From a virus, in IMG/VR virus record IMGVR_UViG_3300045974_000166, positions 128,098-192,097 of that record: a DNA stretch of 64,000 nt; one strand, 5' to 3'. The notes under the pieces are model-generated. The model was not told where the DNA came from. It saw only the letters and a list, made by a program, of their open reading frames with translations, and did no database searches. The number at the start of each line of letters is the position of its first letter. Position 1 is the first letter of the stretch. This document shows positions 12,567 through 40,315 of this stretch, piece after piece. Both the position numbers and the translations under genes were made by a program.

Positions 12567-12979
12567 AAATCGGAGTCACAGGCACCCGCAAAGCTCCTAC
12601 TCAGGAGCAGTTAGATGCTGTACGAAAATTTTTAAATGCTGCACAGACTTATTGTAGAGAAAATGACGATTTCCTAGAACTGCATCACGGTGACTGTGTT
12701 GGCGCTGATGCAGCAGTAGCAGCAATCGCAAAAGAATTTGGAATCAAAACAGTAAGTCATCCACCTTCTAAAAGTGATCTTAGAGCATTCTTTGAATCAG
12801 ATGAAACTAGATATCCAACGTCGTATTTTGCACGGAATAGAAACGTCGTAGATGGCACGGACTTTCTTTTGGTAGTACCATATCAAACTACACCTCAAAC
12901 GTCTGGTGGCACTTGGTATACGCACGACTACGCGCTTAAGCAGGGCAAAGCAGTAAAGGTGATTTATCCAAATGTTTAA
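12563..12979 (+). CDS. SLOG superfamily (DprA/Smf-like) protein
   Basis: IGVTGTR, HHGDCVGAD, ARNRNVVD, SGGTWYT. Confidence 0.8.
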   Translation: MKIGVTGTRKAPTQEQLDAVRKFLNAAQTYCRENDDFLELHHGDCVGADAAVAAIAKEFGIKTVSHPPSKSDLRAFFESDETRYPTSYFARNRNVVDGTDFLLVVPYQTTPQTSGGTWYTHDYALKQGKAVKVIYPNV

Positions 12980-13802
12980 ATTAAAAGAATTTAGCAAAAC
13001 CAAAGAATGGGGTCTTGCTCTGTCACTTAAGACTGCATATGAATTTTACAAAGACGAACCAAATGTTCTTCACGTAGCATTATTTGGTTATTCATTCTGG
13101 TTCGAAGTACCACAGATTCTGAAACCAAAGTCTGTCTGGGTAGATACTTCAAGATATGAATGGGCCAAGGGTAATCCTAAAGCAGGATATACTAATCATA
13201 TTTGCCGTGAGTATGGATTTTCTATATATGAAGATCATTTGCACATTAGATATGGAATTCAGCCAGGTTCTTGGTCGAGAAATGATCCTGAAAATTCCGA
13301 CCATTCTAAATGCTTCGAAATCCCATGGAAAGCTCGGCGACGGATGCACATCGATTACTTGAATCCAGATGAAACTTTATTCAAGAGATATTTTGACAAA
13401 AAGAATGGCGGCATTAACTTTGATGCCCTAGAAGAAATTAGAAATGCAGTACCAAAGTTAGTGATCAAGTTCAACGACTTTGACGGAGAAGAAATCACTG
13501 CTACTTGCCACATCGAAGAATCAATGTATCGTCACGGCACATCTTGGATGAAATGGCTTGGATACATTAGAAAACCAGTATACTATAAACACGTTGACTT
13601 CTCTTTTGATAAAGAAGTGGGTCGGCAAAAAGGTGACTGGAAAGGCGGCACAACGGCACATTCGGCTGTCGTCGAAGAAGGTGATACTCTGTTTGAAGCA
13701 TTTGTCAGATATGGAACATCTCTCGAACGCTGCAAAGGGTACGGCCAGGTTAACCGTGAATTTAGTAATATGAGGATAGTAAATGATCAAGCAATATCGT
13801 AA
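12972..13802 (+). CDS. hypothetical protein
   Basis: 276-aa ORF in tandem array. Confidence 0.8.
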   Translation: MFKLKEFSKTKEWGLALSLKTAYEFYKDEPNVLHVALFGYSFWFEVPQILKPKSVWVDTSRYEWAKGNPKAGYTNHICREYGFSIYEDHLHIRYGIQPGSWSRNDPENSDHSKCFEIPWKARRRMHIDYLNPDETLFKRYFDKKNGGINFDALEEIRNAVPKLVIKFNDFDGEEITATCHIEESMYRHGTSWMKWLGYIRKPVYYKHVDFSFDKEVGRQKGDWKGGTTAHSAVVEEGDTLFEAFVRYGTSLERCKGYGQVNREFSNMRIVNDQAIS

Positions 13803-14583: not shown

Positions 14584-14832
14584 ATGAAATTTTGTATAGA
14601 CTGTAAATACCACAGATATGGTGACGATTACCCATCAGAATGTCACCATCCGATGTCTAACTATAAGACAAATCTAGTATCTGGATATGAGTATTTCCGT
14701 GATTGTACTTATATGAGAGTTGATTTTGCCACTGCAACCGGAATATCTATGCAGGCTGCTGTATGTGGTCCAGATGCAAAATTATTTGAACAAAAGAAAC
14801 CTTGGTGGAAATTATGGCTAAGAAATTCGTAA
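14584..14832 (+). CDS. hypothetical Cys-rich protein
   Basis: CIDCKY...CGPDAKLFE. Confidence 0.7.
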   Translation: MKFCIDCKYHRYGDDYPSECHHPMSNYKTNLVSGYEYFRDCTYMRVDFATATGISMQAAVCGPDAKLFEQKKPWWKLWLRNS

Positions 14833-15842
14833 CCGGTTTGGTTGTCGGCAAGTTCTGCCCACTTCACGATGGGCACGTCAAAGTCATTGATACTGCCGCT
14901 GAGCAATGTGAGAATCTAATCATACTATCTTACACCTCGGGTAATTTCCCAGGCTGTGAAGCAGAGAAGCGGCAAGAGTGGTTAGAAATGGCCACAAAAT
15001 TTTGGGACAGAACCAATATTACAATTGATGTCCTAGACACAAAATCCATTGTCATGGGCCTTGTGGATGACTCTTCGGAGTTTGCACATAGACAATTTTG
15101 TGCCGAACATTTGCTTGAAACTTTAGAAACTACCGTAGATGCCGTCTTTACATCCGAAGATTATGGACAGGGATTTGCCGATCATCTAGCACTTTACTTT
15201 ACGTCGAAATTTTTGAATCCAGTTCATGTCGAACATGTGATGGTAGACAAAGATCGCCTTGAACATCCAATTTCTGGCACACAACTCCGGGAATCAACTA
15301 AGAATATGGAACTATATACACCGTGGTATGTTCGAAAAGATTTTGTTCGTAAGGTATTATTCCTTGGTGCCGAATCAACTGGCAAAACTACTTTAGTACG
15401 TGCGCTTGGGGATGAACAACATACTGCTCTAGAATATGGCCGATTGCTGTACGATGCTCGGAATGGTAAACTTCGGTATGAAGACATGACTCTAATTGGT
15501 GCTCGGCAACTTCAAGTGGAAGATTTAAAGGCTGGCGGCATTAAAATGGATGAATTCATATACTGTGACACATCACCATTGACCACACTGTTTTACACCG
15601 AGCAGTGGTTTGGTCGAGTTCCACAAAAACTTTACGATATGGCAGCAAATTTGGATTCTTACTACAAGATCTTCCTGTGTGCGCCAGACTTTCCGATGGT
15701 GCAGGATGGCACCCGGCAGGATGAAAAGTTCCGGAACAAAGGGCATGCGTTCTATCTCAAAGAACTCGAAGGCAAGAAATATACTCTGCTCACAGGAAGT
15801 CTTGAAGAACGAATTGCTAAAGTGAAACAGGAATTACTATGA
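14802..15842 (+). CDS. nadR: NadR-like NMN adenylyltransferase / nicotinamide riboside kinase
   Basis: GKFCPLHDGH (HxGH), PISGTQLR, LGAESTGKTT, EYGR, CDTSPLTT, QDGTR. Confidence 0.92.
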   Translation: MVEIMAKKFVTGLVVGKFCPLHDGHVKVIDTAAEQCENLIILSYTSGNFPGCEAEKRQEWLEMATKFWDRTNITIDVLDTKSIVMGLVDDSSEFAHRQFCAEHLLETLETTVDAVFTSEDYGQGFADHLALYFTSKFLNPVHVEHVMVDKDRLEHPISGTQLRESTKNMELYTPWYVRKDFVRKVLFLGAESTGKTTLVRALGDEQHTALEYGRLLYDARNGKLRYEDMTLIGARQLQVEDLKAGGIKMDEFIYCDTSPLTTLFYTEQWFGRVPQKLYDMAANLDSYYKIFLCAPDFPMVQDGTRQDEKFRNKGHAFYLKELEGKKYTLLTGSLEERIAKVKQELL

Positions 15843-18790: not shown

Positions 18791-19033
18791 TTGCATGATA
18801 TGAGGTACGATGAGTTTAGAATGGCTCACTATGCCACATATCAACCACAACTTCGTGGTCCAGGATTTGAAGATGAAAGCATCACCGATTGGAAAAACCG
18901 TTGGGTTACTCGTATGTCTTCTCTGCAAATCCGTACGTGCATGGTTCATGAATTTGGGCACTACAATAGTGAGTGGAAAGATGTTGCCGAGGTAGTTATT
19001 CCGGCGTCCGAATGGTATAAGGAAACAAAATGA
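18791..19033 (+). CDS. hypothetical protein
   Basis: tandem ORF. Confidence 0.55.
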   Translation: MHDMRYDEFRMAHYATYQPQLRGPGFEDESITDWKNRWVTRMSSLQIRTCMVHEFGHYNSEWKDVAEVVIPASEWYKETK

Positions 19034-20088
19034 CAGAAGTTTATGTTCGTAAAATGGCATCTATTCAAAAGATTGCCGAAGTAAAGGCTATCCCTGACGC
19101 AGACAAGATCTGTGCTTACAGGGTGAATGGCTGGTGGATTGTTGACCAAGTCGGCAAGTATGTCGTGGGTGATCTTGTTGTGTACGCAGAACCAGATTCT
19201 TTCATTCCGAGCACACTTGCACCTTTCTTGACGAAGCCAGGACATTTCCCCAAGACGTATCTTGGTGTCGAAGGTGAAAAACTTCGCACGATCCGTCTGC
19301 GCAAGCAATTGTCACAAGGGCTGTTGCTGCCATTTACTCCAGAAATTGCAATCAAGGGGTTGGGCGCTGGGCCTGGGGCAAAATTTTCGGATTATGAAGG
19401 TGCTGATGTTTCTGAATTTCTCGGCATTGTAAAGTGGGAAGCACCACCTGAGTTTACTTCTGCTGATGCTCGTGGATCATTCCCATCGTTCATCATCAAG
19501 ACTGACCAAGAACGTGTGCAAAACTGCTTCCGTGATATGGAAGAACATTTTGAACACCAAACATGGGAAGTCACAGAGAAGTGCGAAGGCTCTTCAATGA
19601 CCGTGTACCAACGTCAAGGTGATTTTGGTGTTTGCTCACGCAACTTGGATTTGAAAGAATCTGAGGACAACACATTCTGGAAGATGGCTATTGAGCTTGG
19701 TCTGAAGGAAAAGTTGATCGAAGGTGGGTTGAATATTGCTATTCAAGGTGAACTTTGTGGTCCTGGAATTCAGGGTAACATTTACAACTTGACCAAGCAC
19801 ATGTTCTTCGTGTTTGATATTTTTGACATTGACAAGTTTGAATACTTTAACCCGCACGAACGTAGGTTCCATACAGCACTGCTTGGGTTGACTGATGTGC
19901 CTGTGCTTGAACGTGAAGCAAATCTGGTTGGGCATACATGTGAATCACTGCTATCAAAGGCCGATGGCCAGTCTGTACTTGGGTTGATTGGATGCCTGCG
20001 TGAAGGTGAAGTTTACAAGTTGAATTCGAATCGGCGTATTTCATTCAAAGCAGTGTCAAATAAATATCTTGAAAAGGTTAAGGATTAA
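19030..20088 (+). CDS. ATP-dependent RNA ligase, DRB0094/Rnl2-like with N-terminal OB-like domain
   Basis: IPDADKI, LRTIRLRKQLSQGL, KTDQER, TEKCEGSS (motif I), QGELCGPGIQGN, EGEVYK, SFKAVS. Confidence 0.9.
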   Translation: MTEVYVRKMASIQKIAEVKAIPDADKICAYRVNGWWIVDQVGKYVVGDLVVYAEPDSFIPSTLAPFLTKPGHFPKTYLGVEGEKLRTIRLRKQLSQGLLLPFTPEIAIKGLGAGPGAKFSDYEGADVSEFLGIVKWEAPPEFTSADARGSFPSFIIKTDQERVQNCFRDMEEHFEHQTWEVTEKCEGSSMTVYQRQGDFGVCSRNLDLKESEDNTFWKMAIELGLKEKLIEGGLNIAIQGELCGPGIQGNIYNLTKHMFFVFDIFDIDKFEYFNPHERRFHTALLGLTDVPVLEREANLVGHTCESLLSKADGQSVLGLIGCLREGEVYKLNSNRRISFKAVSNKYLEKVKD

Positions 20089-23958: not shown

Positions 23959-24050
23959 GAACTCGTAGTGATGGAATTGGTAGACATAGGGCCCTTTCCG
24001 GGTCCTGCCGTAAAAAGCGTACAGGTTCGAGTCCTGTCTACAATGAGTTC
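23959..24050 (+). pseudogene. class II tRNA-like element without CCA, extended terminal stem
   Basis: Leu-type D-arm GGAATTGGTAGAC, GGGCC-CTTTCCG-GGTCC, ACAGG-TTCGAGT-CCTGT, GAACTC/GAGTTC. Confidence 0.55.
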
Positions 24051-24051
24051 G

Positions 24052-24161
24052 CATTTTAAAGTATTCTGCAACGGCCGATTGTGGTCAAATAGACGAAGAG
24101 CGTATAAGGTTGGTACCAACCTAAATCCCAGTAGGTTTATGAAGTAGAATGCTTTAAAATG
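24052..24161 (+). ncRNA. long-stem element B6
   Basis: CATTTTAAAGTATTCTGC / GTAGAATGCTTTAAAATG. Confidence 0.6.
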
Positions 24162-24283
24162 ATTTCAATCCACAATCCTCGCTCATCTGGGGATTACAAT
24201 ATGGGAATTAACCCTAAATGCGATGAGGCATTGACATCCTGTAAGGGTGTATAGCTTGAATTAACAGGGTGGATCGAAATGAT

Positions 24284-24433
24284 TTTATAGTTGAAGGCAT
24301 TGCACTATCTGAGAAACACATCAGTAGGGTTGCTCCTACACCGGTGTGAAAAGTCGGAATTCGTTCTTCGCAGAGTTCAATAACCGTATTGGGACGAAGG
24401 TAAAGTGTTTTGAACAGTGCCTTCAACTATAAA
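24284..24433 (+). ncRNA. long-stem element B7, multi-hairpin cargo
   Basis: TTTATAGTTGAAGGCATTG / CAGTGCCTTCAACTATAAA. Confidence 0.6.
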
Positions 24434-24435
24434 TA
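24428..24435 (+). promoter_or_regulatory. T4-type late promoter
   Basis: TATAAATA 7 nt before tRNA-Ala. Confidence 0.55.
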
Positions 24436-24442
24436 GAAATAT

Positions 24443-24518
24443 GGGCTGGTAGTGATACTGGGGTACACGAGGCACTTGCAATGCTTAGATTGGAGTTCGA
24501 TCCTCCACCGGTCCACCA
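24443..24518 (+). tRNA. tRNA-Ala(TGC)
   Basis: loop CTTGCAA, G3:U70, CCA. Confidence 0.92.
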
Positions 24519-24525
24519 AAAATTT

Positions 24526-24597
24526 GCGGGTTGTTTGTGGAATACGTTTAGCCTTCCAAGCTGAAAGATGCAGGTTCGAACCCTGTAGCCCGCTCCA
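24526..24597 (+). tRNA. tRNA-Gly(TCC)
   Basis: loop CTTCCAA, U73, CCA; short D-arm. Confidence 0.88.
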
Positions 24598-24606
24598 CTT
24601 TAATGA

Positions 24607-24683
24607 GTCCCAGTAGCCGAATAGGTATAGGCAGCTGTCTTAAAAGCAGTAATCTGTGGGTTCGAGTCCCACTTGGGACACCA
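24607..24683 (+). tRNA. tRNA-Leu(TAA), short variable arm
   Basis: loop CTTAAAA, A73, CCA. Confidence 0.85.
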
Positions 24684-24690
24684 AGAATAA

Positions 24691-24766
24691 GCCAATGTGG
24701 GACAGGGGTTGTCCAGCTGATTGTCTATCAGCCTTTATGACGGTTCGAGTCCGTTCGTTGGCGCCA
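24691..24766 (+). tRNA. tRNA-Asp(GTC)
   Basis: loop TTGTCTA, G73, CCA. Confidence 0.85.
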
Positions 24767-24771
24767 AGTTA

Positions 24772-24830
24772 AGGATCAGTTCAGCAAAAACTAAAAACTT
24801 TGAATCATTCTCAAACTAAAAGTTGATCCT
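24772..24830 (+). ncRNA. Y-RNA-like element Y1
   Basis: AGGATCA-GTTCAGCAA ... TGATCCT-GTT. Confidence 0.6.
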
Positions 24831-24835
24831 GTTAA

Positions 24836-24864
24836 TTTACACATATTGATGAATGTTTTATAAT
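24836..24864 (+). promoter_or_regulatory. early promoter
   Basis: TTTACA-17-TATAAT. Confidence 0.85.
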
Positions 24865-24889
24865 AACACATCAAATACGGAATTGCAAA

Positions 24890-25054
24890 ATGATTAAAGT
24901 TAACATGAAACAAATGAAAAATTGGAAGGTTACTTCTGATAACGTTAAATTCTATGACTCAATCATGAAAACAAAAGGTTCTGTAGTTACTTTAGACAAA
25001 AGACCTTATGTTGAATTACTTTGTGAGTTCAACATAATGTTTACGGCAAAATAA
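24890..25054 (+). CDS. 54-aa hypothetical protein in RNA array
   Basis: read by hand, between two promoters, GGA RBS. Confidence 0.55.
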   Translation: MIKVNMKQMKNWKVTSDNVKFYDSIMKTKGSVVTLDKRPYVELLCEFNIMFTAK

Positions 25055-25083
25055 TTTACACATAATATGGAATGATTTTAAAT
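25055..25083 (+). promoter_or_regulatory. early promoter variant
   Basis: TTTACA-17-TTAAAT. Confidence 0.65.
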
Positions 25084-25092
25084 CATTCCATC

Positions 25093-25134
25093 CAATCAAA
25101 CATCGCTTTGATTGACTAGGTTCATTAAAAAGTT
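25093..25134 (+). promoter_or_regulatory. boxB-like hairpin plus boxA-like element
   Basis: CAATCAAA-CATCGC-TTTGATTG then GTTCATTAAAAA. Confidence 0.55.
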
Positions 25135-25174
25135 ATTGAAGGATTTTCTGTGTTGACACTTAGTTGGCACAGAG

Positions 25175-25263
25175 ATCATTCCGAAGCATAAAGCAACCGT
25201 GGCAGAGATCGTCACAACTAACCATGGAATAGATGTGTTGCTCCATGTATGCTTCGGAATGAT
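25175..25263 (+). ncRNA. long-stem element B8
   Basis: 16-bp ATCATTCCGAAGCATA / TATGCTTCGGAATGAT. Confidence 0.6.
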
Positions 25264-25270
25264 GAATATT

Positions 25271-25356
25271 GGAGTAGACGCCTGAGTGGAAGGGCTCCCG
25301 GCTGTAACCCGGAGGACAGTAATGCTGTGTAGGTTCGAACCCTACCTGCTCCACCA
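25271..25356 (+). tRNA. tRNA-Tyr(GTA)
   Basis: loop CTGTAAC, long V-arm, CCA. Confidence 0.92.
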
Positions 25357-25363
25357 ATTTTAT

Positions 25364-25442
25364 TGACCATAAGCCGACAAGGTGTTAGGCGCTTGACTGT
25401 TAATCAAGAATGAGGTAGGTTCGATTCCTACATGGTCAGCCA
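25364..25442 (+). tRNA. tRNA-Asn(GTT)
   Basis: loop CTGTTAA, G73, CCA. Confidence 0.92.
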
Positions 25443-25448
25443 AGTTAT

Positions 25449-25706
25449 TTCGTTGTAGTATAGAGGAAGGTAGAGTAGTATTGAGTATGTGAGATAAGGC
25501 ATCTAGTAGTGCAAAGTAGATAACAATCGCGTAGGCTTAAAAAAACCAAACACTGTGAGCCGGGGAAGTGCCGGACAGGTTGAAATGCATGAAGAGTGAG
25601 ATAAGGCGCAGAGGGGATATGAGGGTAACTTTGGGAAATACACGGGCCACCCAGCATACGCGATTTTGGGCCCTAGTCGCAGGTTCGAGCCCTGCCAATG
25701 AAGCCA
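25449..25706 (+). ncRNA. 258-nt tRNA-shaped RNA with about 176-nt D-loop insertion
   Basis: TTCGTTG/CAATGAA-GCCA acceptor, GTAT/ATAC D-stem, GGGCC/GGCCC stem, GCAGG-TTCGAGC-CCTGC. Confidence 0.6.
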
Positions 25707-25709
25707 AGT

Positions 25710-25862
25710 TTTGAAGTGTAGATGTTGAGAACACAGGAACTCGAAAGCCCTGTAAGCAGATTTAGCGATCTATGTACCAACTATTACTACGTATCTCTAA
25801 CCCACCGCGGCTAGTATTCATGGGTAAAATGGTTCCGAATGAGGGAGACGGAACACTTCAAA
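25710..25862 (+). ncRNA. long-stem element B9
   Basis: TTTGAAGTGT / ACACTTCAAA enclosing four hairpins. Confidence 0.5.
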
Positions 25863-25871
25863 TTCATTTTT

Positions 25872-25926
25872 AGGTTCCGTTCAGCAAATTCAAAAATTTC
25901 ACTTTTAATGAAAAAATAAGGAACCT
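25872..25926 (+). ncRNA. Y-RNA-like element Y2 with Lys anticodon stem-loop
   Basis: AGGTTCC-GTTCAGCAA ... TTTCA-CTTTTAA-TGAAA ... GGAACCT-GTT. Confidence 0.65.
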
Positions 25927-25934
25927 GTTATTTT

Positions 25935-26010
25935 AGCCTTGTATTCAATCGTAGTTGAAACCTCTCTCATAAAGAGGATATAGGCGGTTAGACTCCGTCC
26001 TAGGCCACCA
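25935..26010 (+). tRNA. tRNA(CAT), Met or Ile2
   Basis: loop CTCATAA, A1:C72 mismatch, CCA. Confidence 0.8.
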
Positions 26011-26011
26011 A

Positions 26012-26386
26012 ATACTAAGTTGTTTGCTAGTAGTAGAGTAGATGGAAACCGAGCCGGAAAGATGTTCCGGTCTTCACAGAAATGTGACAAACGATAAGCA
26101 AAGTCGGTCCAGTAGGGAGTCGAAAGCAAACAATGGCGGAAAGACCTGCCGAGGACAGAAGTTAAGATCATACACAGACGGCCCACATGGTACCGACTGG
26201 CAATTCGATCCTAACGCCGTGTATTCCTTCCCAAATTGAATCAAGTGGAAAGCAAGAGCCACAAAGTAAATGTTAGATGATCATGGCTGCTCGGTCATCT
26301 TTGCTGTGATACACGGCGTCAGTTGTCCGCAAGGGTAGCAATTGAGAAACAACGGGGTAAGAATCCCAACTAAGAGTATGCCTCCA
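26012..26386 (+). ncRNA. candidate large structured RNA, about 375 nt
   Basis: long-range helices 26214-26224/26309-26319 and 26102-26108/26192-26198, terminal stem, GGG-GTAAGAAT-CCC, ends CCA. Confidence 0.6.
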
Positions 26387-26392
26387 ATTTTC

Positions 26393-26467
26393 ACCGCGTT
26401 CGACTTCTGGTGAGGTCAACAGCCTTTCAAGCTGTGTAGACGGGCTCGAAACCCGTACGCGGTACCA
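26393..26467 (+). tRNA. tRNA-Glu(TTC)
   Basis: loop CTTTCAA, T-loop CTCGAAA, CCA. Confidence 0.9.
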
Positions 26468-26470
26468 ACA

Positions 26471-26520
26471 TTTGAAGACGCCAAGGTTACCTGCACCATA
26501 ACGGCAAGCAGGACTTCAAA
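26471..26520 (+). ncRNA. small stem-closed element B10
   Basis: TTTGAAG/CTTCAAA with inner CCTGC/GCAGG. Confidence 0.35.
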
Positions 26521-26528
26521 TTCAATTC

Positions 26529-26602
26529 GCCTATGTAGCTCAATGGTAGAGCAATCGACTGATAATCGATCGACGAAGGTCCGATTCCTTACGTAGGCAC
26601 CA
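26529..26602 (+). tRNA. tRNA-Ile(GAT)
   Basis: loop CTGATAA, CCA. Confidence 0.92.
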
Positions 26603-26607
26603 AATAT

Positions 26608-26685
26608 GAGGCGTGAGCTAGTGTGGTCATTCAGCGACGGTCTGAAAAGCCGTAGAACAAGGTCCGATTCCTTGACGCCCCACCA
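26608..26685 (+). tRNA. tRNA-Phe(GAA)
   Basis: loop CTGAAAA, CCA. Confidence 0.9.
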
Positions 26686-26692
26686 AAGTTAT

Positions 26693-26785
26693 GGAGATGT
26701 GGTCGAGTCTGGTTTATGGCAACGGTCTTGAAAACCGTCGGGGACTAACCCTCCCCCGTGAGTTCGAATCTCACCGTCTCCGCCA
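26693..26785 (+). tRNA. tRNA-Ser(TGA)
   Basis: loop CTTGAAA, long V-arm, G73, CCA. Confidence 0.93.
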
Positions 26786-26793
26786 AAATTTAT

Positions 26794-26867
26794 GCACTTA
26801 GAGCCGGTTGGATAGGCAGCGGATTGCAAACCCGTGTAACTCAGTTCGATTCTGAGTAGGTGTTCCA
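26794..26867 (+). tRNA. tRNA-Cys(GCA)
   Basis: loop TTGCAAA, U73, CCA. Confidence 0.92.
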
Positions 26868-26873
26868 GTATTT

Positions 26874-26947
26874 CTCGGTATAGTTTAATAGTAGAATTTA
26901 TGCTTTGGGAGCATGGGATGGGGGTGCGATTCCTCCTACCGAGACCA
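26874..26947 (+). tRNA. tRNA-Pro(TGG)
   Basis: loop TTTGGGA, C1:G72, A73, CCA. Confidence 0.9.
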
Positions 26948-26953
26948 ATTTAA

Positions 26954-27030
26954 CAGTATGTGGTGACAAGTGGACGTCGACTAGTTTTGGAAACTAGAAT
27001 ATATCGGTTCGAGGCCGATCATACTGACCA
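26954..27030 (+). tRNA. tRNA-Pro(TGG), second copy with A37
   Basis: loop TTTGGAA, C1:G72, A73, CCA. Confidence 0.85.
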
Positions 27031-27131
27031 TTTTAAGTAAGACATTCGGGTTGACCACAAGGCCACGTGCCAAGGTAAGGTGTCTGAAGTATAAGCAACA
27101 GGTTTGGTCATGCTTATGCACGAAAAAGTTT

Positions 27132-27209
27132 TGAGTAGTTACAGCAATTAATAAAATCTGGCTGAGGGTTTCGATTTCCCTCTTTAATCAAAAAGTAGAT
27201 CACTACTCA
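27132..27209 (+). ncRNA. Y-RNA-like element Y3 with T-arm cargo
   Basis: TGAGTAG-TTACAGCAA ... GAGGG-TTTCGATTT-CCCTC ... CTACTCA-GTT. Confidence 0.6.
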
Positions 27210-27219
27210 GTTATATTAC

Positions 27220-27294
27220 CTGCCATTCGTATAGTGAATAATACAACTTTCTTCTAAAGAGTGAACGGGAGTTTGATTCTCTCATGGCGGACCA
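27220..27294 (+). tRNA. tRNA-Arg(TCT)
   Basis: loop CTTCTAA, CCA. Confidence 0.88.
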
Positions 27295-27318
27295 AAGATC
27301 ATTAAGAATAAAAATAAC

Positions 27319-27326
27319 TATAAATA
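27319..27326 (+). promoter_or_regulatory. T4-type late promoter
   Basis: TATAAATA 8 nt before tRNA-Gly. Confidence 0.6.
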
Positions 27327-27334
27327 GTAAGTAT

Positions 27335-27408
27335 GTGGGGTTAGTTAAATGGTAGAACCAAACGTTGCCAACGTTTAGACACGGGTCCGATTCCCGTACC
27401 TCACACCA
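27335..27408 (+). tRNA. tRNA-Gly(GCC)
   Basis: loop TTGCCAA, CCA; A73 atypical. Confidence 0.88.
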
Positions 27409-27413
27409 AATTT

Positions 27414-27488
27414 GCTCTCAAAGCATAGACAGCGATGCAGGGGTCTTGTAAGCCTCAGAGTAGGGCGCAAGTCCTTATGGGAGCACCA
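27414..27488 (+). tRNA. tRNA-Thr(TGT)
   Basis: loop CTTGTAA, T-loop CGCAAGT, CCA. Confidence 0.88.
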
Positions 27489-27493
27489 AATTA

Positions 27494-27567
27494 CGCAGGT
27501 AGTGTAGCCAACAATCCTCTCTCATAAGGACGGATCATCGGAGGTGCGAATCCTTCACCTGCACCCA
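27494..27567 (+). tRNA. initiator-like tRNA-Met(CAT), degenerate D-arm
   Basis: C1:A72 mismatch, loop CTCATAA, CCA. Confidence 0.7.
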
Positions 27568-27592
27568 TTTAATCATAGAAAGGCATCATATC

Positions 27593-28156
27593 ATGAATAG
27601 GTATCCATTAGTGCTAACACTAGATTCTGCAGGTATTCCGCAGAGATGGTCTACCTGGGAAGAAGGTGTCGTGGCAAAATACAAAGGCGTTATCGCTTGG
27701 TCACTTGGTGAAGAAACCATCTACCGGGGCGGTAACTCAAGACTTACTGGCGAACAATCAACCGTAGCAGTTCCATCTATTATTGCTATTCGATCTATGG
27801 GTCGTACAAAGAACCGAGCAGTGCCACTTACAAACAAGAATTTGTTTGGGCGTGACCGGAACATTTGTTGTTACTGTGGTACTCATGTGAAAGATCATGA
27901 CGCTACACGTGACCATATTGTTCCGTATGCTAAGAAAGGTACGAACGTTTGGATGAATGTTGTTACTGCATGTAAGCCTTGCAATAACTATAAGGATGAC
28001 AAAACTGTAGAACAAGCTGGGCTAGAGATGCTATATGCACCTTATGTCCCAGATCGTGCAGAAGCTTTGATTCTTGCCAACCGTAACATTTTGGCAGATC
28101 AAATGGAATTCTTATTGGCACATTTGCCTAAGCATTCTCGGGCACGACCACATTAG
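27593..28156 (+). CDS. HNH endonuclease (McrA/HNH_5-like)
   Basis: NLFGRDRNICCYCG, TRDHIVP, NVVTACKPCNNYK. Confidence 0.92.
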   Translation: MNRYPLVLTLDSAGIPQRWSTWEEGVVAKYKGVIAWSLGEETIYRGGNSRLTGEQSTVAVPSIIAIRSMGRTKNRAVPLTNKNLFGRDRNICCYCGTHVKDHDATRDHIVPYAKKGTNVWMNVVTACKPCNNYKDDKTVEQAGLEMLYAPYVPDRAEALILANRNILADQMEFLLAHLPKHSRARPH

Positions 28157-28245
28157 GGGTGTGGGCAGGATGGTAATGCAGCGGTTTGCTAAACCGTAGA
28201 GTCCCTCAAAAGGCTCACAGGGTCCGATTCCCTGACACTCCGCCA
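28156..28245 (+). tRNA. tRNA-Ser(GCT)
   Basis: loop TTGCTAA, long V-arm, G73, CCA. Confidence 0.92.
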
Positions 28246-28250
28246 ATTTT

Positions 28251-28362
28251 AGGATCAGTTCAGCATTTAATATACCAAGCAGCTTGTTGTGAGTTCGATT
28301 CTCACCTTCCGAGTAATCGGTTGTAGTTCAACGGTAGAACAGCCGCCAATTAAAGTGATCCT
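28251..28362 (+). ncRNA. Y-RNA-like element Y4, YrlA-type circularly permuted tRNA module
   Basis: AGGATCA-GTTCAGCA; T-arm GTGAG-TTCGATT-CTCAC; acceptor closed by CCGA-GTAA-TCGG; TA-GTTC-AACGGTA-GAAC D-arm; TGATCCT. Confidence 0.8.
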
Positions 28363-28373
28363 GCTAAATATAC

Positions 28374-28449
28374 TGGGGGTTTGTCATTTGGTAATGACAC
28401 TGCGCTTTGACCGCAGGAAAGTCGGGTCCGATTCCCACACCCTCTGCCA
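28374..28449 (+). tRNA. tRNA-Gln(TTG)
   Basis: loop CTTTGAC, G73, CCA. Confidence 0.88.
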
Positions 28450-28484
28450 ACATTATTGATTTTTAACTAGATGGAGTACTCCAA

Positions 28485-28637
28485 ATGAAAGATAGAAGTG
28501 TGAAACATAAAGAAGCCCTGAGCCGTAACACGGAATGGGCAAAACTTTCCCCTACTGAGCAATTAGCTCAACTGGATAAGTTGGGTTTGGTAGCAACCAA
28601 ACAGCGAAAGAAAATTGCTGCTAAAATGGCAGCTTGA
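28485..28637 (+). CDS. 50-aa basic hypothetical protein
   Basis: read by hand, GGAG RBS. Confidence 0.65.
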   Translation: MKDRSVKHKEALSRNTEWAKLSPTEQLAQLDKLGLVATKQRKKIAAKMAA

Positions 28638-28644
28638 GATATAC

Positions 28645-28718
28645 AGGTGGTTGGTGTAATGGCAACATTGCGGTCTCCAAAATCGTCGATCGGGGTTCGA
28701 GTCCCTGGCTGCCTGCCA
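28645..28718 (+). tRNA. tRNA-Trp(CCA)
   Basis: loop CTCCAAA, G73, CCA. Confidence 0.9.
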
Positions 28719-28731
28719 AGACAATTTAGGT

Positions 28732-28804
28732 GTGGCCTTATCATAAAAGTAATGACCTAGGCTGTGAACTTAGTTAAGAGGGAGCATTACCCTCAGGTCA
28801 CCCC
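28732..28804 (+). tRNA. tRNA-His(GTG), no encoded CCA
   Basis: loop CTGTGAA, C73, T-loop AGCATTA. Confidence 0.8.
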
Positions 28805-28816
28805 TAAATTGTTTTT

Positions 28817-28893
28817 GCGGATGTGGCGAAATTGGTAAACGCAGCGGTCTTAGAAGCCGTAGGCTGTGGGTTCGAGTCCCACCATCCGCACCA
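28817..28893 (+). tRNA. tRNA-Leu(TAG), short variable arm
   Basis: loop CTTAGAA, Leu-type D-loop, A73, CCA. Confidence 0.9.
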
Positions 28894-28970
28894 AAATTTA
28901 CGGGGAGCAACTAATCATTGCCGCTATATGTCCATACCCCGTGGGTATAGTGTTTCCCTGTAAAACTTAC

Positions 28971-29045
28971 ATCTCTGTAGTACAACGGAAAGTATCTAAG
29001 TTTGCGAAACTTAAGACGGTGGTTCGACTCCACCCAGAGGTACCA
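28971..29045 (+). tRNA. tRNA-Arg(GCG)
   Basis: loop TTGCGAA, CCA. Confidence 0.85.
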
Positions 29046-29061
29046 TCATTAAAGGAAAATC

Positions 29062-29250
29062 ATGAAAAAACTTATCGCTCTCATTACATTGGCTTTTGCC
29101 TCTACCGCTTTTGCTGCTGCTTCGGCACCTCGCGTACATGTACAACTCAAGGTTGCTCAGCCACCAGTCCAAGCAGCTGTTAATGAAACAAAACTAAAGC
29201 AGCGTGCTGCTAAGTTGGCCAAGGCCAAGGCTAAAGCCGCTTCTAAGTAA
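29062..29250 (+). CDS. small secreted Ala/Lys-rich protein
   Basis: signal peptide MKKLIALITLAFASTAFA, AAAGGA RBS. Confidence 0.75.
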   Translation: MKKLIALITLAFASTAFAAASAPRVHVQLKVAQPPVQAAVNETKLKQRAAKLAKAKAKAASK

Positions 29251-29321
29251 GAAGTACTCCGACACAGATACTGTATCTCGTCTGTGTTGGGGAGGGTGGA
29301 ATACAGCCACCCGAGAGATAC

Positions 29322-29398
29322 GTCCATGTAGCCGAATTGGTATAGGCACCTGTTTCAAAAGCAGTCATCTGTGGGTTCGAGTCCCACCTTGGACACCA
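29322..29398 (+). tRNA. tRNA-Leu(CAA), short variable arm
   Basis: loop TTCAAAA; paralogue of the 24607 tRNA; CCA. Confidence 0.82.
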
Positions 29399-29408
29399 AC
29401 CAAATTAT

Positions 29409-29483
29409 GCGCGGGTAGCTCAGAGGAAGAGCAACTCTTTTACACGGAGAAGGTCGAGATTTCAAAATTCTCCCTGCGCACCA
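29409..29483 (+). tRNA. tRNA-Val(TAC)
   Basis: loop TTTACAC, CCA. Confidence 0.88.
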
Positions 29484-29491
29484 AAACATTA

Positions 29492-29566
29492 GGGTCGTTA
29501 GTACAACGAATAGTATCATTGTCTTCGAAACAATAGATAAAGGTTTGACTCCTTTACGACCCCCCA
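29492..29566 (+). tRNA. tRNA-Arg(TCG)
   Basis: loop CTTCGAA, C73 atypical, CCA. Confidence 0.85.
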
Positions 29567-29571
29567 ACATC

Positions 29572-29646
29572 GCCCAGTTATTTCAGTGGTAGTAATAAAT
29601 CTTTGGTAAGGATTAGACGGGGGTTCGATTCCCCCACAGGGCACCA
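29572..29646 (+). tRNA. tRNA-Thr(GGT)
   Basis: loop TTGGTAA, CCA. Confidence 0.88.
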
Positions 29647-29652
29647 AATAAA

Positions 29653-29737
29653 GCGAATGTGGCGTAACTGGTAGCCGCGCTAGTCTAAGAAGCTAGTGGA
29701 GAAATCCGTGTCGGTTCGAGTCCGACCATTCGCACCA
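29653..29737 (+). tRNA. tRNA-Leu(AAG), A34
   Basis: CTAGT-CTAAGAA-GCTAG, long V-arm, A73, CCA. Confidence 0.88.
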
Positions 29738-29743
29738 TATTAA

Positions 29744-29772
29744 TGTACACATACTTCTGAGTATAGTATAAT
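29744..29772 (+). promoter_or_regulatory. early promoter variant
   Basis: TGTACA-17-TATAAT. Confidence 0.7.
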
Positions 29773-29798
29773 GAACTATCTAAATTCAAAAGATTGTC

Positions 29799-30158
29799 AT
29801 GCTTTTAACATCTCTTATTGTCAGTGTTCACCTTTTAAGTCTTCACGATGCGCCTGGATTTCAGGCCGTTACTCCCGGACTTAGTATTCGTGAACCCGAA
29901 ACTGGTTTGACTGTTGGGATACTCAAAAATTCCGAAGGCGGAGATTCAGTATTCGCCGGCAAACTTATGGAACACAAAAACTATGGACTATTCATTGGTG
30001 CAATCACAGGATACAAATCTGCATCTGTGCTCCCAATGGTTGTCCCTAGTTACAAAATTAACCTAGCCAATGATGTTAATCTGCGGTTTAGTTATTTGGC
30101 CAAGGTTAACTCCAATGGCGCAAATGCAATTCACTTTTCAATTGAAAAGAAATTTTAA
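29799..30158 (+). CDS. small exported beta-rich protein, possible outer-membrane barrel
   Basis: hydrophobic N-terminus, TPGL, GAITGY, C-terminal Phe. Confidence 0.6.
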   Translation: MLLTSLIVSVHLLSLHDAPGFQAVTPGLSIREPETGLTVGILKNSEGGDSVFAGKLMEHKNYGLFIGAITGYKSASVLPMVVPSYKINLANDVNLRFSYLAKVNSNGANAIHFSIEKKF

Positions 30159-30173
30159 TCAAGGAAAATCAAA

Positions 30174-30194
30174 ATGAAAACTAGTAAACGCTAG
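30174..30194 (+). other. mini-ORF MKTSKR with two AAA codons
   Basis: AAGGA RBS; ATG AAA ACT AGT AAA CGC TAG followed by a hairpin. Confidence 0.45.
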
Positions 30195-30256
30195 TGTCAT
30201 TACTCAACCCCGTGTAGGTTCTGTGATGGCACGTAAAAGAAATTTTATACACATCA

Positions 30257-30331
30257 CCACCCTAAACTTTGATAGTGAAGTCCGGCCTCTTAAGCCGAGA
30301 GAACTCAGTGCAATTCTGAGAGAGTGGACCA
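30257..30331 (+). tRNA. tRNA-Lys(CTT)
   Basis: loop CTCTTAA, T-loop TGCAATT, CCA. Confidence 0.85.
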
Positions 30332-30336
30332 TACAC

Positions 30337-30410
30337 GGGGTTGAAACTTTAAAGTGAAGTACCGGTCTTTTAAACCGGCTAATTCGGAGCGTTACCGAAC
30401 TACCCTACCA
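30337..30410 (+). tRNA. tRNA-Lys(TTT)
   Basis: loop CTTTTAA, T-loop AGCGTTA, CCA. Confidence 0.85.
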
Positions 30411-30505
30411 TATCTAAATACACTATCGTTTGATCAACGACGCTTGGAGCTACCGGAACAGCATGCACCGGGTGAGGTTCGATTCCTCTAGTGTATTTAG
30501 ATATG
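30409..30505 (+). ncRNA. long-stem element B11 with tRNA-like cargo
   Basis: 17-bp CATATCTAAATACACTA / TAGTGTATTTAGATATG; inner GAGG-TTCGATT-CCTC. Confidence 0.6.
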
Positions 30506-30579
30506 GTACAGTAGCATTAAGATAATGCAACATCTTCATACGGTGTCCTAAGTGGGTTTGATTCCCACCCGTACCACCA
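30505..30579 (+). tRNA. tRNA(CAT), Met or Ile2
   Basis: loop TTCATAC, CCA. Confidence 0.85.
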
Positions 30580-38896: not shown

Positions 38897-40315
38897 ATGA
38901 ACGCATTCGTAAACGCCATTGCTGAACAAATTCAACGTACCGAAAACGGTATGAAGGCTCGTGCATCCACAGCTAACGCCTGTGTTGACCTGTTTTTCGC
39001 TATCGGTGCAAGCCGTGGCAAGAACATCATCCCTCAATTCACGGCGGCATTCGTAGAGAACTCTGACCTGGCTCTCCGCATCGTTGCGTGGGCTCGTGAC
39101 GTTCGTGGTGGTGCGGGTGAACGTGAAATCTTCCGTTCGGTGCTTTCACATCTCGAAACCGCTAATCCAGCGGCCGCTGTGGCTCTTGTTAAGAAGGTGC
39201 CTGAATTGGGCCGCTTCGATGATCTGTTGATCTTCAAGACTAAGCCTCTGAAGGAAACTGCTTACACTATCTTGGGTGACGCTCTGCGCGCTCAAAATGG
39301 TCTGGCGGCAAAGTGGACTCCTCGTAAGGGTGATGTCGCACGTGAAATCCGTGAGTTCTTCGGTATGAGCCCAAAGTTTTACCGCAAGTCTTTGGTGACA
39401 ATGTCTACTACTGTTGAGCAACAAATGTGTGCCGGCAAGTGGGATGACATCAACTACTCCCATGTGCCTTCGGTTGCTCATGCACGTTACAAGAAGGCCT
39501 TTGGTCGCCACGGTACAACCTATGCTGAGTACATCACCAAGTTGGTTAAGGGTGATGACCCAACTGTGAAGATCAATGCTTCGGCAATCTTCCCACATGA
39601 CGTGCTGAAGGGTCGTATCGACGGCTACGACATGACTTGGAATAAGCAAGAGCTCGATGTGATCGAAGCTCAATGGGCTGCTCTGCCTAACTACATTGGT
39701 GACGCTTCGGTGTTGCCATTGGTTGACGTGTCTGGCTCGATGACTTGTCCAGCGGGTAATAAGGGTACAACTACTTGTTTGGAAATTGCAGTGTCTCTGG
39801 GCCTGTACTTTGCAGACAAGAACAAGGGTGCCTTTAAGGACTGTATGCTGACTTTCAGCGACAAGCCACAGTTGGTGAAGCTGAAGGGCAACATCAACGA
39901 GAAGATCAACCAAATGGTCGCCGCTGATTGGGGCATGCGTACTAATCTGCACTCGGCATTCAACACAATCTTGGATGCAGCAGTGAAGAACTCTGTGCCA
40001 TCGGCAGATATGCCAGGTACTATGGTTATCTTCTCGGATATGCAATTCAATGCTTGTGTGCGTAACGATGACTCTGCCATGGAGATGATTGAACGTAAGT
40101 TTGCGGATGCAGGTTACACTGTGCCTAAGATTGTGTTCTGGAACTTGAACGCTGGTAACAACGTTCCTGTGAAGTTCGACAAGACTGGTGCCGCTCTGGT
40201 ATCTGGTTTCAGCCCAGCGGTTGCTTCGGCAATCTTGTCTGGTAATATAGACGACTTCACCCCAGAAGCGATCATGCTGAAGGCTGTGATGCAAACTCGA
40301 TACGATTTGGTATAA
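38897..40315 (+). CDS. DUF2828-family helical + vWA protein, Ro60/TROVE-like architecture
   Basis: RDVRGGAGER, GRFDDLL, AAKWTPR, vWA MIDAS VDVSGSM, TFSD, FSDMQF, VFWNL, VSGFS. Confidence 0.85.
   Translation: MNAFVNAIAEQIQRTENGMKARASTANACVDLFFAIGASRGKNIIPQFTAAFVENSDLALRIVAWARDVRGGAGEREIFRSVLSHLETANPAAAVALVKKVPELGRFDDLLIFKTKPLKETAYTILGDALRAQNGLAAKWTPRKGDVAREIREFFGMSPKFYRKSLVTMSTTVEQQMCAGKWDDINYSHVPSVAHARYKKAFGRHGTTYAEYITKLVKGDDPTVKINASAIFPHDVLKGRIDGYDMTWNKQELDVIEAQWAALPNYIGDASVLPLVDVSGSMTCPAGNKGTTTCLEIAVSLGLYFADKNKGAFKDCMLTFSDKPQLVKLKGNINEKINQMVAADWGMRTNLHSAFNTILDAAVKNSVPSADMPGTMVIFSDMQFNACVRNDDSAMEMIERKFADAGYTVPKIVFWNLNAGNNVPVKFDKTGAALVSGFSPAVASAILSGNIDDFTPEAIMLKAVMQTRYDLV

Follow-up and report, generated by a model that had tools for sequence, protein, structure and literature searches.

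A conserved family of structured RNAs of about 255 nucleotides on a tRNA frame in the tRNA arrays of large phages

Introduction

The window analysed here is a stretch of 64,000 nucleotides (nt) that forms the final 64 kilobases (kb) of a 192-kb virus record in IMG/VR (IMGVR_UViG_3300045974_000166), and it holds an array of transfer RNA (tRNA) genes. Within this array, at 25449-25706 on the plus strand, lies an element of 258 nt with a complete outer tRNA frame and an insert of 176 nt in its D-loop. What kind of gene is this? An earlier note on the window had offered two answers, a tRNA-processed carrier for a protein-sponge or decoy RNA and an unusually interrupted tRNA resembling tRNA-Gln. 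Our analysis indicates that the element belongs to a real, conserved family of structured RNAs of about 255 nt, previously uncatalogued. We favour with moderate confidence the reading that it is the gene for a stable, non-decoding, tRNA-scaffolded structured RNA, which large uncultured phages of aquatic habitats carry in their tRNA arrays and which acts by being bound. For the first part of this reading, that the RNA is stable, non-decoding and scaffolded by a tRNA, our confidence is high.

Distribution and conservation

Copies were sought by pattern scans of IMG/VR, metagenomes and prokaryote genomes, and by blastn in deposited phage genomes. The element, including its "insert", recurs in 13 further IMG/VR phage contigs of 23-385 kb and in 35 more metagenome contigs, and the sources are freshwater, marine and wastewater samples. 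Twelve of the IMG/VR copies can be aligned over the full 258 nt, with identities of 81-88%. The two lineages L005 and L032 are far more divergent and follow the same plan, and one divergent copy sits in a phage of 385 kb. The insert and the 20-nt loop of the anticodon-like arm are conserved at least as strongly as the tRNA-like ends. Additional pattern scans of IMG/VR returned the same 13 contigs and none new. Among 185,579 prokaryote species genomes none matched the core pattern, and in 50,697 deposited phage genomes blastn found no copy, the only match being of tRNA size, in an Aerococcus phage. The candidates L012 and L016-L018 were rejected as chance matches within coding DNA.

The homologues always lie inside tRNA arrays, with 10-40 tRNAs where the fetched stretch was long enough. 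The element commonly stands 6-8 nt 3' of a tRNA of varying identity, and sometimes 6-8 nt 5' of the next tRNA. This arrangement fits the idea of a tRNA-processed carrier in the earlier note, as the element begins and ends where a tRNA would, stands 6-8 nt from its tRNA neighbours and has an intact elbow.

Covariation support for the fold

The structure was derived from 39 distinct copies as one nested RNAalifold fold, to which a pseudoknot was added. Over the 63 counted pairs in 13 helices, 95% of the alignment cells hold standard pairs, as against 33-40% in controls whose partners were slid by 1-3 columns. Thirty-three pairs vary on both sides (7-16 in the slid controls), the covariation score is 0.298 (about 0.05 in controls), and none of 500 shuffles matched any of the observed pairing or covariation values. 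The minimum-free-energy fold of the single element was no better than that of shuffles (z = +1.09), and thermodynamics alone would thus have missed the structure. The covarying helices bear out the suggestion that the D-loop carries a large structured payload on a tRNA frame. The earlier note had asked whether homologues would reveal the insert as a recent random disruption; the recurrence in phage and metagenome contigs answers this question, because conservation together with covariation excludes such an origin.

The tRNA frame

All coordinates of the frame were verified against the sequence, and the acceptor, D-stem, anticodon stem, 20-nt loop, T-arm and G73-CCA described earlier are all in place. 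The acceptor stem UUCGUUG/CAAUGAA has 7 base pairs (bp), with U1:A72 and G4:U69; its 5' strand (25449-25455) starts 6 nt past the CCA of a tRNA-Asn and pairs with 25696-25702. There follow U8, A9, the 5' strand of the D-stem, GUAU (25458-25461), and the 5' part of the D-loop, A14 G15 A16 G17 (25456-25465 in all). Beyond the rod, at 25633-25643, come the 3' part of the D-loop, GGGAA, which provides G18, G19 and A21, the 3' strand of the D-stem, AUAC (25638-25641), and a 2-nt connector, AC; the two D-stem strands are separated by 176 nt (25462-25637). The anticodon-like arm (25644-25673) consists of a covarying stem, GGGCC (25644-25648) with GGCCC (25669-25673), and a 20-nt loop, ACCCAGCAUACGCGAUUUUG (25649-25668). 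The remainder of the plus-strand frame (25674-25706) comprises the variable loop UAGUC, the T-arm GCAGG/UUCGAGC/CCUGC (25679-25695), the 3' strand of the acceptor stem (25696-25702), G73 (25703) and an encoded CCA (25704-25706).

Across the 39 copies, five of the seven acceptor pairs vary on both sides and 99.6% of the acceptor cells pair, with U1:A72 invariant. The D-stem covaries across its long gap (GUAU/AUAC, GUGU/ACAC, GUUU/GAAC). In the T-stem every cell pairs and 3 pairs vary on both sides, and the T-loop UUCGA is present in all copies. Neither U8 nor A14 varies, the tertiary pair 15:48 changes from G:C in 37 copies to A:U in two divergent ones, and the G18G19 dinucleotide 5' of the D-stem 3' strand was found in all alignment rows inspected and in the commonest column patterns. 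The element therefore has the features by which a tRNA is recognised: a 7-bp acceptor stem, a T-arm with a UUCRA T-loop, and the elbow contacts U8:A14, R15:Y48 and G18G19. The exit point of the rod lies between the A14-R15 and G18G19 parts of the D-loop, and the elbow stays intact. The encoded CCA is kept in 39 of 39 copies, and position 73 is G in 36 of them; among the divergent members, L005 has U there, and L032 and L048 have A. The 3:70 pair, C:G in 37 copies, is U:A in the other 2, and none has the G3:U70 pair of transfer-messenger RNA (tmRNA), in agreement with the earlier view that this is not a standard tmRNA.

The anticodon-like loop is 20-21 nt long among the homologues and its core, CCCAGCAUACGCGAUU, is nearly invariant. 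By inspection of the sequence, no trimming of the 20-nt loop yields a 7-nt anticodon loop with U33.

The element was called neither by default ARAGORN nor by Rfam at gathering scores. The tRNA covariance model RF00005 gave no match over 25449-25706 at its gathering score or at E values up to 10, and no family of Rfam 15 matches the element. Relaxed ARAGORN offers only a poor "tRNA-Ala(ggc), intron 176" model, which disrupts the covarying long-range D-stem. When the rod was deleted in silico, default ARAGORN accepted 37 of the 39 copies as tRNAs with an "intron" of 14-16 nt, and the pseudo-anticodon was inconsistent among these rod-deleted homologues (ttt, tat, ttg, tta, taa, tag, tga and att).

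The D-loop rod

The insert (25462-25637) measures 176 nt and is 69% purine, compared with 53% for the window, which upholds the earlier description of a purine-rich insert. Its 12-nt repeat was also described correctly: the 12-mer GTGAGATAAGGC occurs only twice in the window, at 25489 and 25596, and a 12-nt repeat arose by chance in 9 of 5000 shuffles of the insert. According to the RNAalifold consensus, the pair counts and the conservation of the junctions, the insert folds into a rod, with a 5' strand at 25466-25524 and a 3' strand at 25579-25632, both on the plus strand. The rod consists of seven short helices, which run outward from the D-loop in the order P3 (25466-69 with 25629-32), P4 (25478-82 with 25616-20), P5 (25488-91 with 25607-10), P5' (25500-03 with 25595-98), P6 (25509-13 with 25586-90), P7 (25519-21 with 25579-81) and the apical hairpin P8.

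Four of the junctions share a conserved composition, in which AGUA on the 5' strand faces GA(A/G) on the 3' strand: AGUA 25474-77 opposite GA 25621-22, AGUA 25484-87 opposite GAG 25611-13, AGUA 25505-08 opposite GAA 25591-93, and AGUA 25515-18 opposite GAA 25582-84. AGUA facing GA typifies the sequences of loop-E or sarcin-ricin (bulged-G) motifs, and judging from this motif consensus the junctions are probably loop-E-like or sarcin-ricin-like. In the centre of the rod, between P5 and P5', lies an internal loop of 8x8 nt, both strands of which read AGAUAAGG (25492-99 and 25599-606), with G:C closure at both ends. This purine loop is two-fold symmetric, being made of identical antiparallel strands, and the 12-nt direct repeat exists because these two strands of the same sequence form a symmetric element.

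On the 5' side between P7 and P8 stand a 13-nt strand, AAUCGCGUAGGCU (25525-25537, plus strand), which is unchanged in 37 of the 39 copies, and an A-rich single-stranded linker, UAAAAAAACCAAACA (25538-25552, plus strand), whose 3' half, AAACCAAACA, is nearly invariant. P8 itself (25553-25578, plus strand) is built of CUGU, a GAG bulge, CCGG, the loop GGAAGUG, CCGG and ACAG. The bulge and the loop are invariant, the inner stem covaries (CCGG/CCGG, UCCG/CGGA, CCCG/CGGG), and all its cells pair.

Pairing between the rod and the anticodon-like loop

The 13-nt strand, which is the 5' strand of the pseudoknot, is complementary to AGCAUACGCGAUU (25653-25665) in the 20-nt loop, over 9 bp, a G.A opposition and 3 bp. 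Shuffled inserts gave 9 contiguous pairs in 2 of 2000 trials and a 12-of-13 match in none of 2000. Complementarity thus links the two blocks of the family that are conserved best. Because both strands are almost invariant, covariation is nearly absent here, and the sole informative case is L032, in which both residues of the G.A opposition are changed to give an A-U pair. We estimate that the rod has about 49 stacked layers up to the 13-nt strand, or about 135 Å if it is straight, which is about twice the distance from elbow to anticodon.

Genome context

The element lies within an array of about 30 tRNA genes (23962-30576). Six tRNAs in it were missed by default ARAGORN and recovered by Rfam or relaxed ARAGORN: tRNA-Phe(GAA) at 26608-26685, a tRNA without assigned identity at 27414-27485, tRNA-Gln(UUG) at 28375-28445 by relaxed ARAGORN (28374-28446 in the Rfam tRNA match), tRNA-His(GUG) at 28732-28804, tRNA-Lys(UUU) at 30337-30410 and tRNA-Met(CAU) at 30505-30579. 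With these six, the array appears to cover all 20 amino acids. Gaps of 400-690 nt with neither a called tRNA nor a convincing open reading frame (ORF) occur at 24046-24442, 24767-25270 and 25707-26392, and these could hold further non-tRNA RNAs. The array also contains an ORF for an HNH endonuclease of 187 amino acids (27593-28156), which recalls the homing endonuclease gene segB in the tRNA cluster of phage T4.

A near-consensus sigma-70-like promoter (TTTACA, 17 nt, TATAAT; 11/12) at 24836-24864 lies in a 500-nt gap 5' of tRNA-Tyr, tRNA-Asn and the element, and a promoter and terminator scan of the region gave site counts not above those of shuffles. On the 3' side of the element, GGTTCCG hairpins repeat at 25820-25935, and the string GTTCAGCAAATT-AAAAATT is common to the regions 3' of the window element and of the divergent L005 copy in the 385-kb phage. 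The shared downstream string and hairpins may be a conserved regulatory or promoter element.

Upstream of the array are genes for an Acb3-like inhibitor of the cyclic-oligonucleotide-based anti-phage signalling system CBASS (12972-13802, E 2e-42), a NadR-like cytidylyltransferase with an AAA_28 kinase (14802-15842) and a PHA02142-type RNA ligase (19030-20088), which on circumstantial grounds give the region a flavour of anti-defence and RNA repair. Downstream of the element by 13 kb, a gene at 38897-40315 encodes a protein of 472 amino acids with DUF2828 and DUF7788 domains, for which no PDB sequence match was found. DUF2828 homologues occur in 702 of the 50,697 cultured phages, many of whose groups we take to be rich in tRNAs, and one homologue is annotated as "RNA-binding protein". 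DUF2828 was found in the window and in 3 of the 4 other complete carrier genomes, the exception being G003, which is complete and has the RNA. The RNA ligase is present in 3 of the 5 complete carrier genomes, and the photosystem gene psbA in none of the 5. No TROVE domain was found in the 192-kb genome of the window. Neither the DUF2828 protein nor the RNA ligase is an obligate partner of the RNA. A protein of 574 amino acids with a glycosyl hydrolase family 5 (cellulase) domain is encoded on the minus strand at 47856-49580.

Discussion

The features described above suggest how such an RNA could be made and what it could do. It would be co-transcribed with the neighbouring tRNAs and matured by RNase P and the 3' tRNA-processing enzymes, which would recognise the acceptor/T minihelix and the elbow. 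The product would be a nuclease-resistant RNA of about 255 nt, owing its stability to the tRNA fold and the CCA end. Pairing of the loop with the rod would abolish decoding and lock the invariant apical domain against the tRNA body, and the RNA would then function through being bound, as a tRNA look-alike that presents the apical domain and the purine loops. The apical domain has remained near-invariant while the tRNA-like frame drifted and covaried among phages, and this points to a conserved partner, which may be a factor that recognises tRNAs or is related to translation. In the specific form of this proposal that we find most attractive, and that we put forward only tentatively, the RNA would be an uncleavable decoy for a tRNA-directed defence nuclease of the host. 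Somewhat more speculative is a self-clamped tRNA, in which the rod would reach round from the D-loop and pair with the enlarged anticodon loop of the same molecule, giving a closed, uncleavable look-alike that might jam a tRNA-directed host factor such as the anticodon nuclease of an anti-phage defence system. Such a molecule would be a cis version of the grip of T-box Stem I on tRNA.

Several points weigh against our preferred reading. Complementarity, conservation and one double change, but no broad covariation, support the pseudoknot, and the estimated length of a straight rod would require either a bend near the central loop or pairing between two molecules; in this model, pairing within one molecule would become possible if the rod were kinked by roughly 105 degrees at the central loop, closing a triangle. 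We infer processing, stability and the absence of splicing for an RNA that is known from gene sequences alone. Read contigs from three wastewater "RNA-Seq cDNA" (complementary DNA) runs, which belong to one study and are possibly DNA, and from one DNA run gave short contigs of relatives (151-197 nt, depth 9-57) that lie inside the element and run unbroken from the rod through the anticodon-like loop to the T-arm, but they may be DNA-derived. No spliced joint was seen in them, and they are too weak to count for transcription or against splicing. A binding partner was not found: in an all-versus-all ORF comparison no protein family was consistently adjacent and none occurred in more than 5 fetched loci, and DUF2828 and the RNA ligase are each absent from some complete genomes that carry the RNA.

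Other explanations have to be weighed against this reading. We consider it highly improbable that the gene encodes a decoding tRNA from which one or two introns are removed after transcription. The tRNA frame is complete, and the poor intron-176 model of relaxed ARAGORN would agree with it, but that model breaks the covarying D-stem, the supposed introns are the most conserved parts, position 33 is never U however the 20-nt loop is cut down to 7 nt, and the pseudo-anticodon varies among homologues. The insert lies in the D-loop and no valid spliced product can be written; the group I intron model Intron_gpI gave no match at E values up to 10, and the joined form was absent from the read contigs of relatives. 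No bulge-helix-bulge was seen by eye at the insert junctions, which consist of the D-stem, D-loop segments of 4 and 5 nt, and P3, without 3-nt bulges flanking a 4-bp helix. The Gln-like identity proposed in the earlier note fails on the same conservation, loop and pseudo-anticodon grounds, and the array already contains the tRNA-Gln(UUG) at 28375-28445. A second explanation keeps the RNA non-decoding and has it aminoacylated, after which it would work like a tmRNA on the ribosome or as an amino-acid donor outside translation. The CCA encoded in all 39 copies, the conserved discriminator base, the invariant U1:A72 and the intact elbow are what such an RNA would need, yet we regard it as unlikely, for G3:U70 occurs in no copy, neither an ARAGORN tmRNA call nor an Rfam tmRNA match falls over the element, a conserved tag frame was not noticed by eye, and divergent members have another discriminator base (U in L005 and A in both L032 and L048). 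It has no anticodon either, and under the bacterial identity rules the synthetases for G73 tRNAs mostly read the anticodon. The candidate of a tmRNA proper was rejected, since positions 3:70 are C:G or U:A, ARAGORN -m returned none, and the Rfam tmRNA hits lay on neighbouring tRNAs or were noise.

Further explanations concern the partner of the RNA. If the 13-nt rod strand paired with the anticodon-like loop of a second molecule, the RNA could assemble into dimers or rings as an architectural RNA. The estimated rod length of about twice the elbow-to-anticodon distance, the invariance of both pairing strands and the two-fold symmetry of the central loop would suit this, and there is a precedent in dimers or rings of the ornate phage-associated RNAs ROOL and GOLLD. 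Homo-oligomeric complexes are formed by ROOL, GOLLD and OLE (PMC12286853). Pairing within one molecule would, however, be possible with a bend of about 105 degrees at the central loop, and we think self-assembly improbable. We also judge it quite unlikely that the RNA is a Y-RNA-like partner of a phage Ro-type protein, with the DUF2828+DUF7788 protein (38897-40315) in a role analogous to that of Rsr with YrlA. DUF2828 may be Ro-like; a comparison of the protein with PDB sequences gave no match. Its gene lies 13 kb downstream in the window and DUF2828 accompanies the RNA in 3 of 4 other complete carriers, there is a faint, T-arm-driven YrlA match at 25653-25761, and YrlA RNAs have tRNA-like domains, one of them being cleaved by RNase P (PMC4201824). 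Against this, the YrlA model (RF02553) scores 15.7 bits with a gathering score of 69, a TROVE domain was not found in the 192-kb genome, the complete genome G003 has the RNA without DUF2828, none of the 702 cultured phages with DUF2828 matched the RNA by blastn, and the two genes are not adjacent. In only some copies does the acceptor 3' strand contain the YrlA motif GNCGAAG (as GACGAAG); the window copy lacks it, and it was judged coincidental. Very doubtful, in our opinion, is a role as a binder of another tRNA, in which the symmetric purine loop would be an elbow-docking platform that clamps a host or phage tRNA. The model for this is the double T-loop module of RNase P J11/12-J12/11, the L1 stalk and T-box Stem I; the RNase P module is likewise an internal loop between two helices. 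Each strand of the loop contains AGAUA, a fit to the AGNNA pentamer, and the loop as a whole is symmetric. The known module has a two-fold axis, and in it AGNNA pairs with UGNNA, which avoids a clash (PMC3664808). A UGNNA partner strand is nevertheless missing here, the second pentamer has no fixed first residue (A in 35 copies, G in 2, C in 2), Rfam gave no RNase P or T-box match, and the loop could equally be a continuous non-canonical helix.

Two simpler candidates were set aside. The antisense, pyrimidine-rich strand is open over 52-86 codons in every copy, but these frames fall in three different frames among homologues over an invariant core, and they are therefore a composition artefact and not a coding region. 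A CsrA-type sponge was dropped as a main explanation because only one GGA stands in a hairpin loop, the remaining GGAs being in helices or internal loops with a structural explanation of their own; the sponge reading is weak for CsrA, Hfq and S1 alike.

Among known systems, species 1 RNA of phage T4 (rnaC) would be the nearest analogue of our proposed tRNA-scaffolded RNA, with which we place it by likeness of working rather than by membership. Stable RNAs of unexplained function in the T4 tRNA cluster have been recognised for decades, and the T4 record annotates rnaC and rnaD (species 2 RNA) only as "small, stable RNA". Both rnaC and the present RNA are encoded in a tRNA array of a T4-type phage, the PolB of the window being closest to T4-like cyanophage proteins (Synechococcus phage BUCT-ZZ01, 44.6% identity), and both have a T-arm and paired ends. 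The predicted fold of rnaC (z = -4.5) has a long hairpin rod at the D-arm position and a non-decoding anticodon-like hairpin, and the present family has each part of the rnaC architecture that was compared (tRNA-like ends, T-arm, D-arm rod and location in an array). They differ in length, rnaC having 139 nt and the present RNA about 255 nt, and rnaC has an imperfect acceptor stem and no evident pairing of rod and loop. No homology was detected: in an nhmmer --max search of the T4 tRNA region with a hidden Markov model of the family, the only match was to the T-arm of a tRNA. The two share the short strings AUUGAGUAG and UGAGAUA-GGC: rnaC (L054 2909-3047, minus strand) has AUUGAGUAG and UUGAGAUAUGGCC, which resemble AUUGAGUAG and GUGAGAUAAGGC of the family and are either a shared motif or chance. 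Among phage tRNA-like stable RNAs the D-loop rod is unprecedented, and a probable lock between loop and rod accompanies it.

Other systems resemble single aspects of the RNA. Like the present RNA, tmRNA (SsrA) has a tRNA-like acceptor stem, a T-arm and a CCA end with a large structured domain and pseudoknot pairing between them; unlike tmRNA, the present RNA has no G3:U70 and no tag frame and keeps the D-stem and an anticodon-type stem. In YrlA, the ends of the RNA form the Ro-binding stem and the gene lies beside Ro60, whereas the ends of the present RNA form an acceptor stem, its genome has no TROVE gene, and its Rfam score is far under the threshold. The likeness to YrlA-type Y RNAs (Chen et al. 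2014, PMC4201824) lies in their being non-coding and in tRNA tertiary mimicry, including a covarying 15:48 pair, and both are likely substrates of tRNA-processing enzymes. With T-box Stem I bound to tRNA and with the RNase P specificity domain (PMC3664808, PMC4919913), the resemblance is only in how the RNA might work. T-box Stem I sends a helical rod from the elbow region of the tRNA to the anticodon loop and pairs with that loop, which may be similar here, and the two-fold purine loop resembles an elbow-docking module. Unlike Stem I, the present rod is covalently within the tRNA-like molecule, the pairing spans 13 bp instead of a codon-sized specifier, and no family match was found. In engineered tRNA scaffolds, a payload RNA is built into a tRNA body for processing and stabilisation by the cell; the present RNA is natural, and its payload sits in the D-loop instead of the anticodon stem and would be fastened to the anticodon loop by the pairing. 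The architecture is also a natural template for embedding RNA payloads in the D-loop of a tRNA.

The family offers a much larger and better conserved example of the stable RNAs of phage tRNA clusters, with 39 distinct sequences and a secondary structure resolved by covariation. It also provides elements that can be tested, namely the pseudoknot between loop and rod, the four loop-E-like junctions, the symmetric purine loop and the invariant apical hairpin. Phage tRNA arrays carry tRNA-scaffolded structured RNAs that are missed by standard tRNA finders and by Rfam, and if the partner of this RNA is the translation apparatus or a defence system that targets tRNAs, the family would be an RNA-based counter-measure of a new design.

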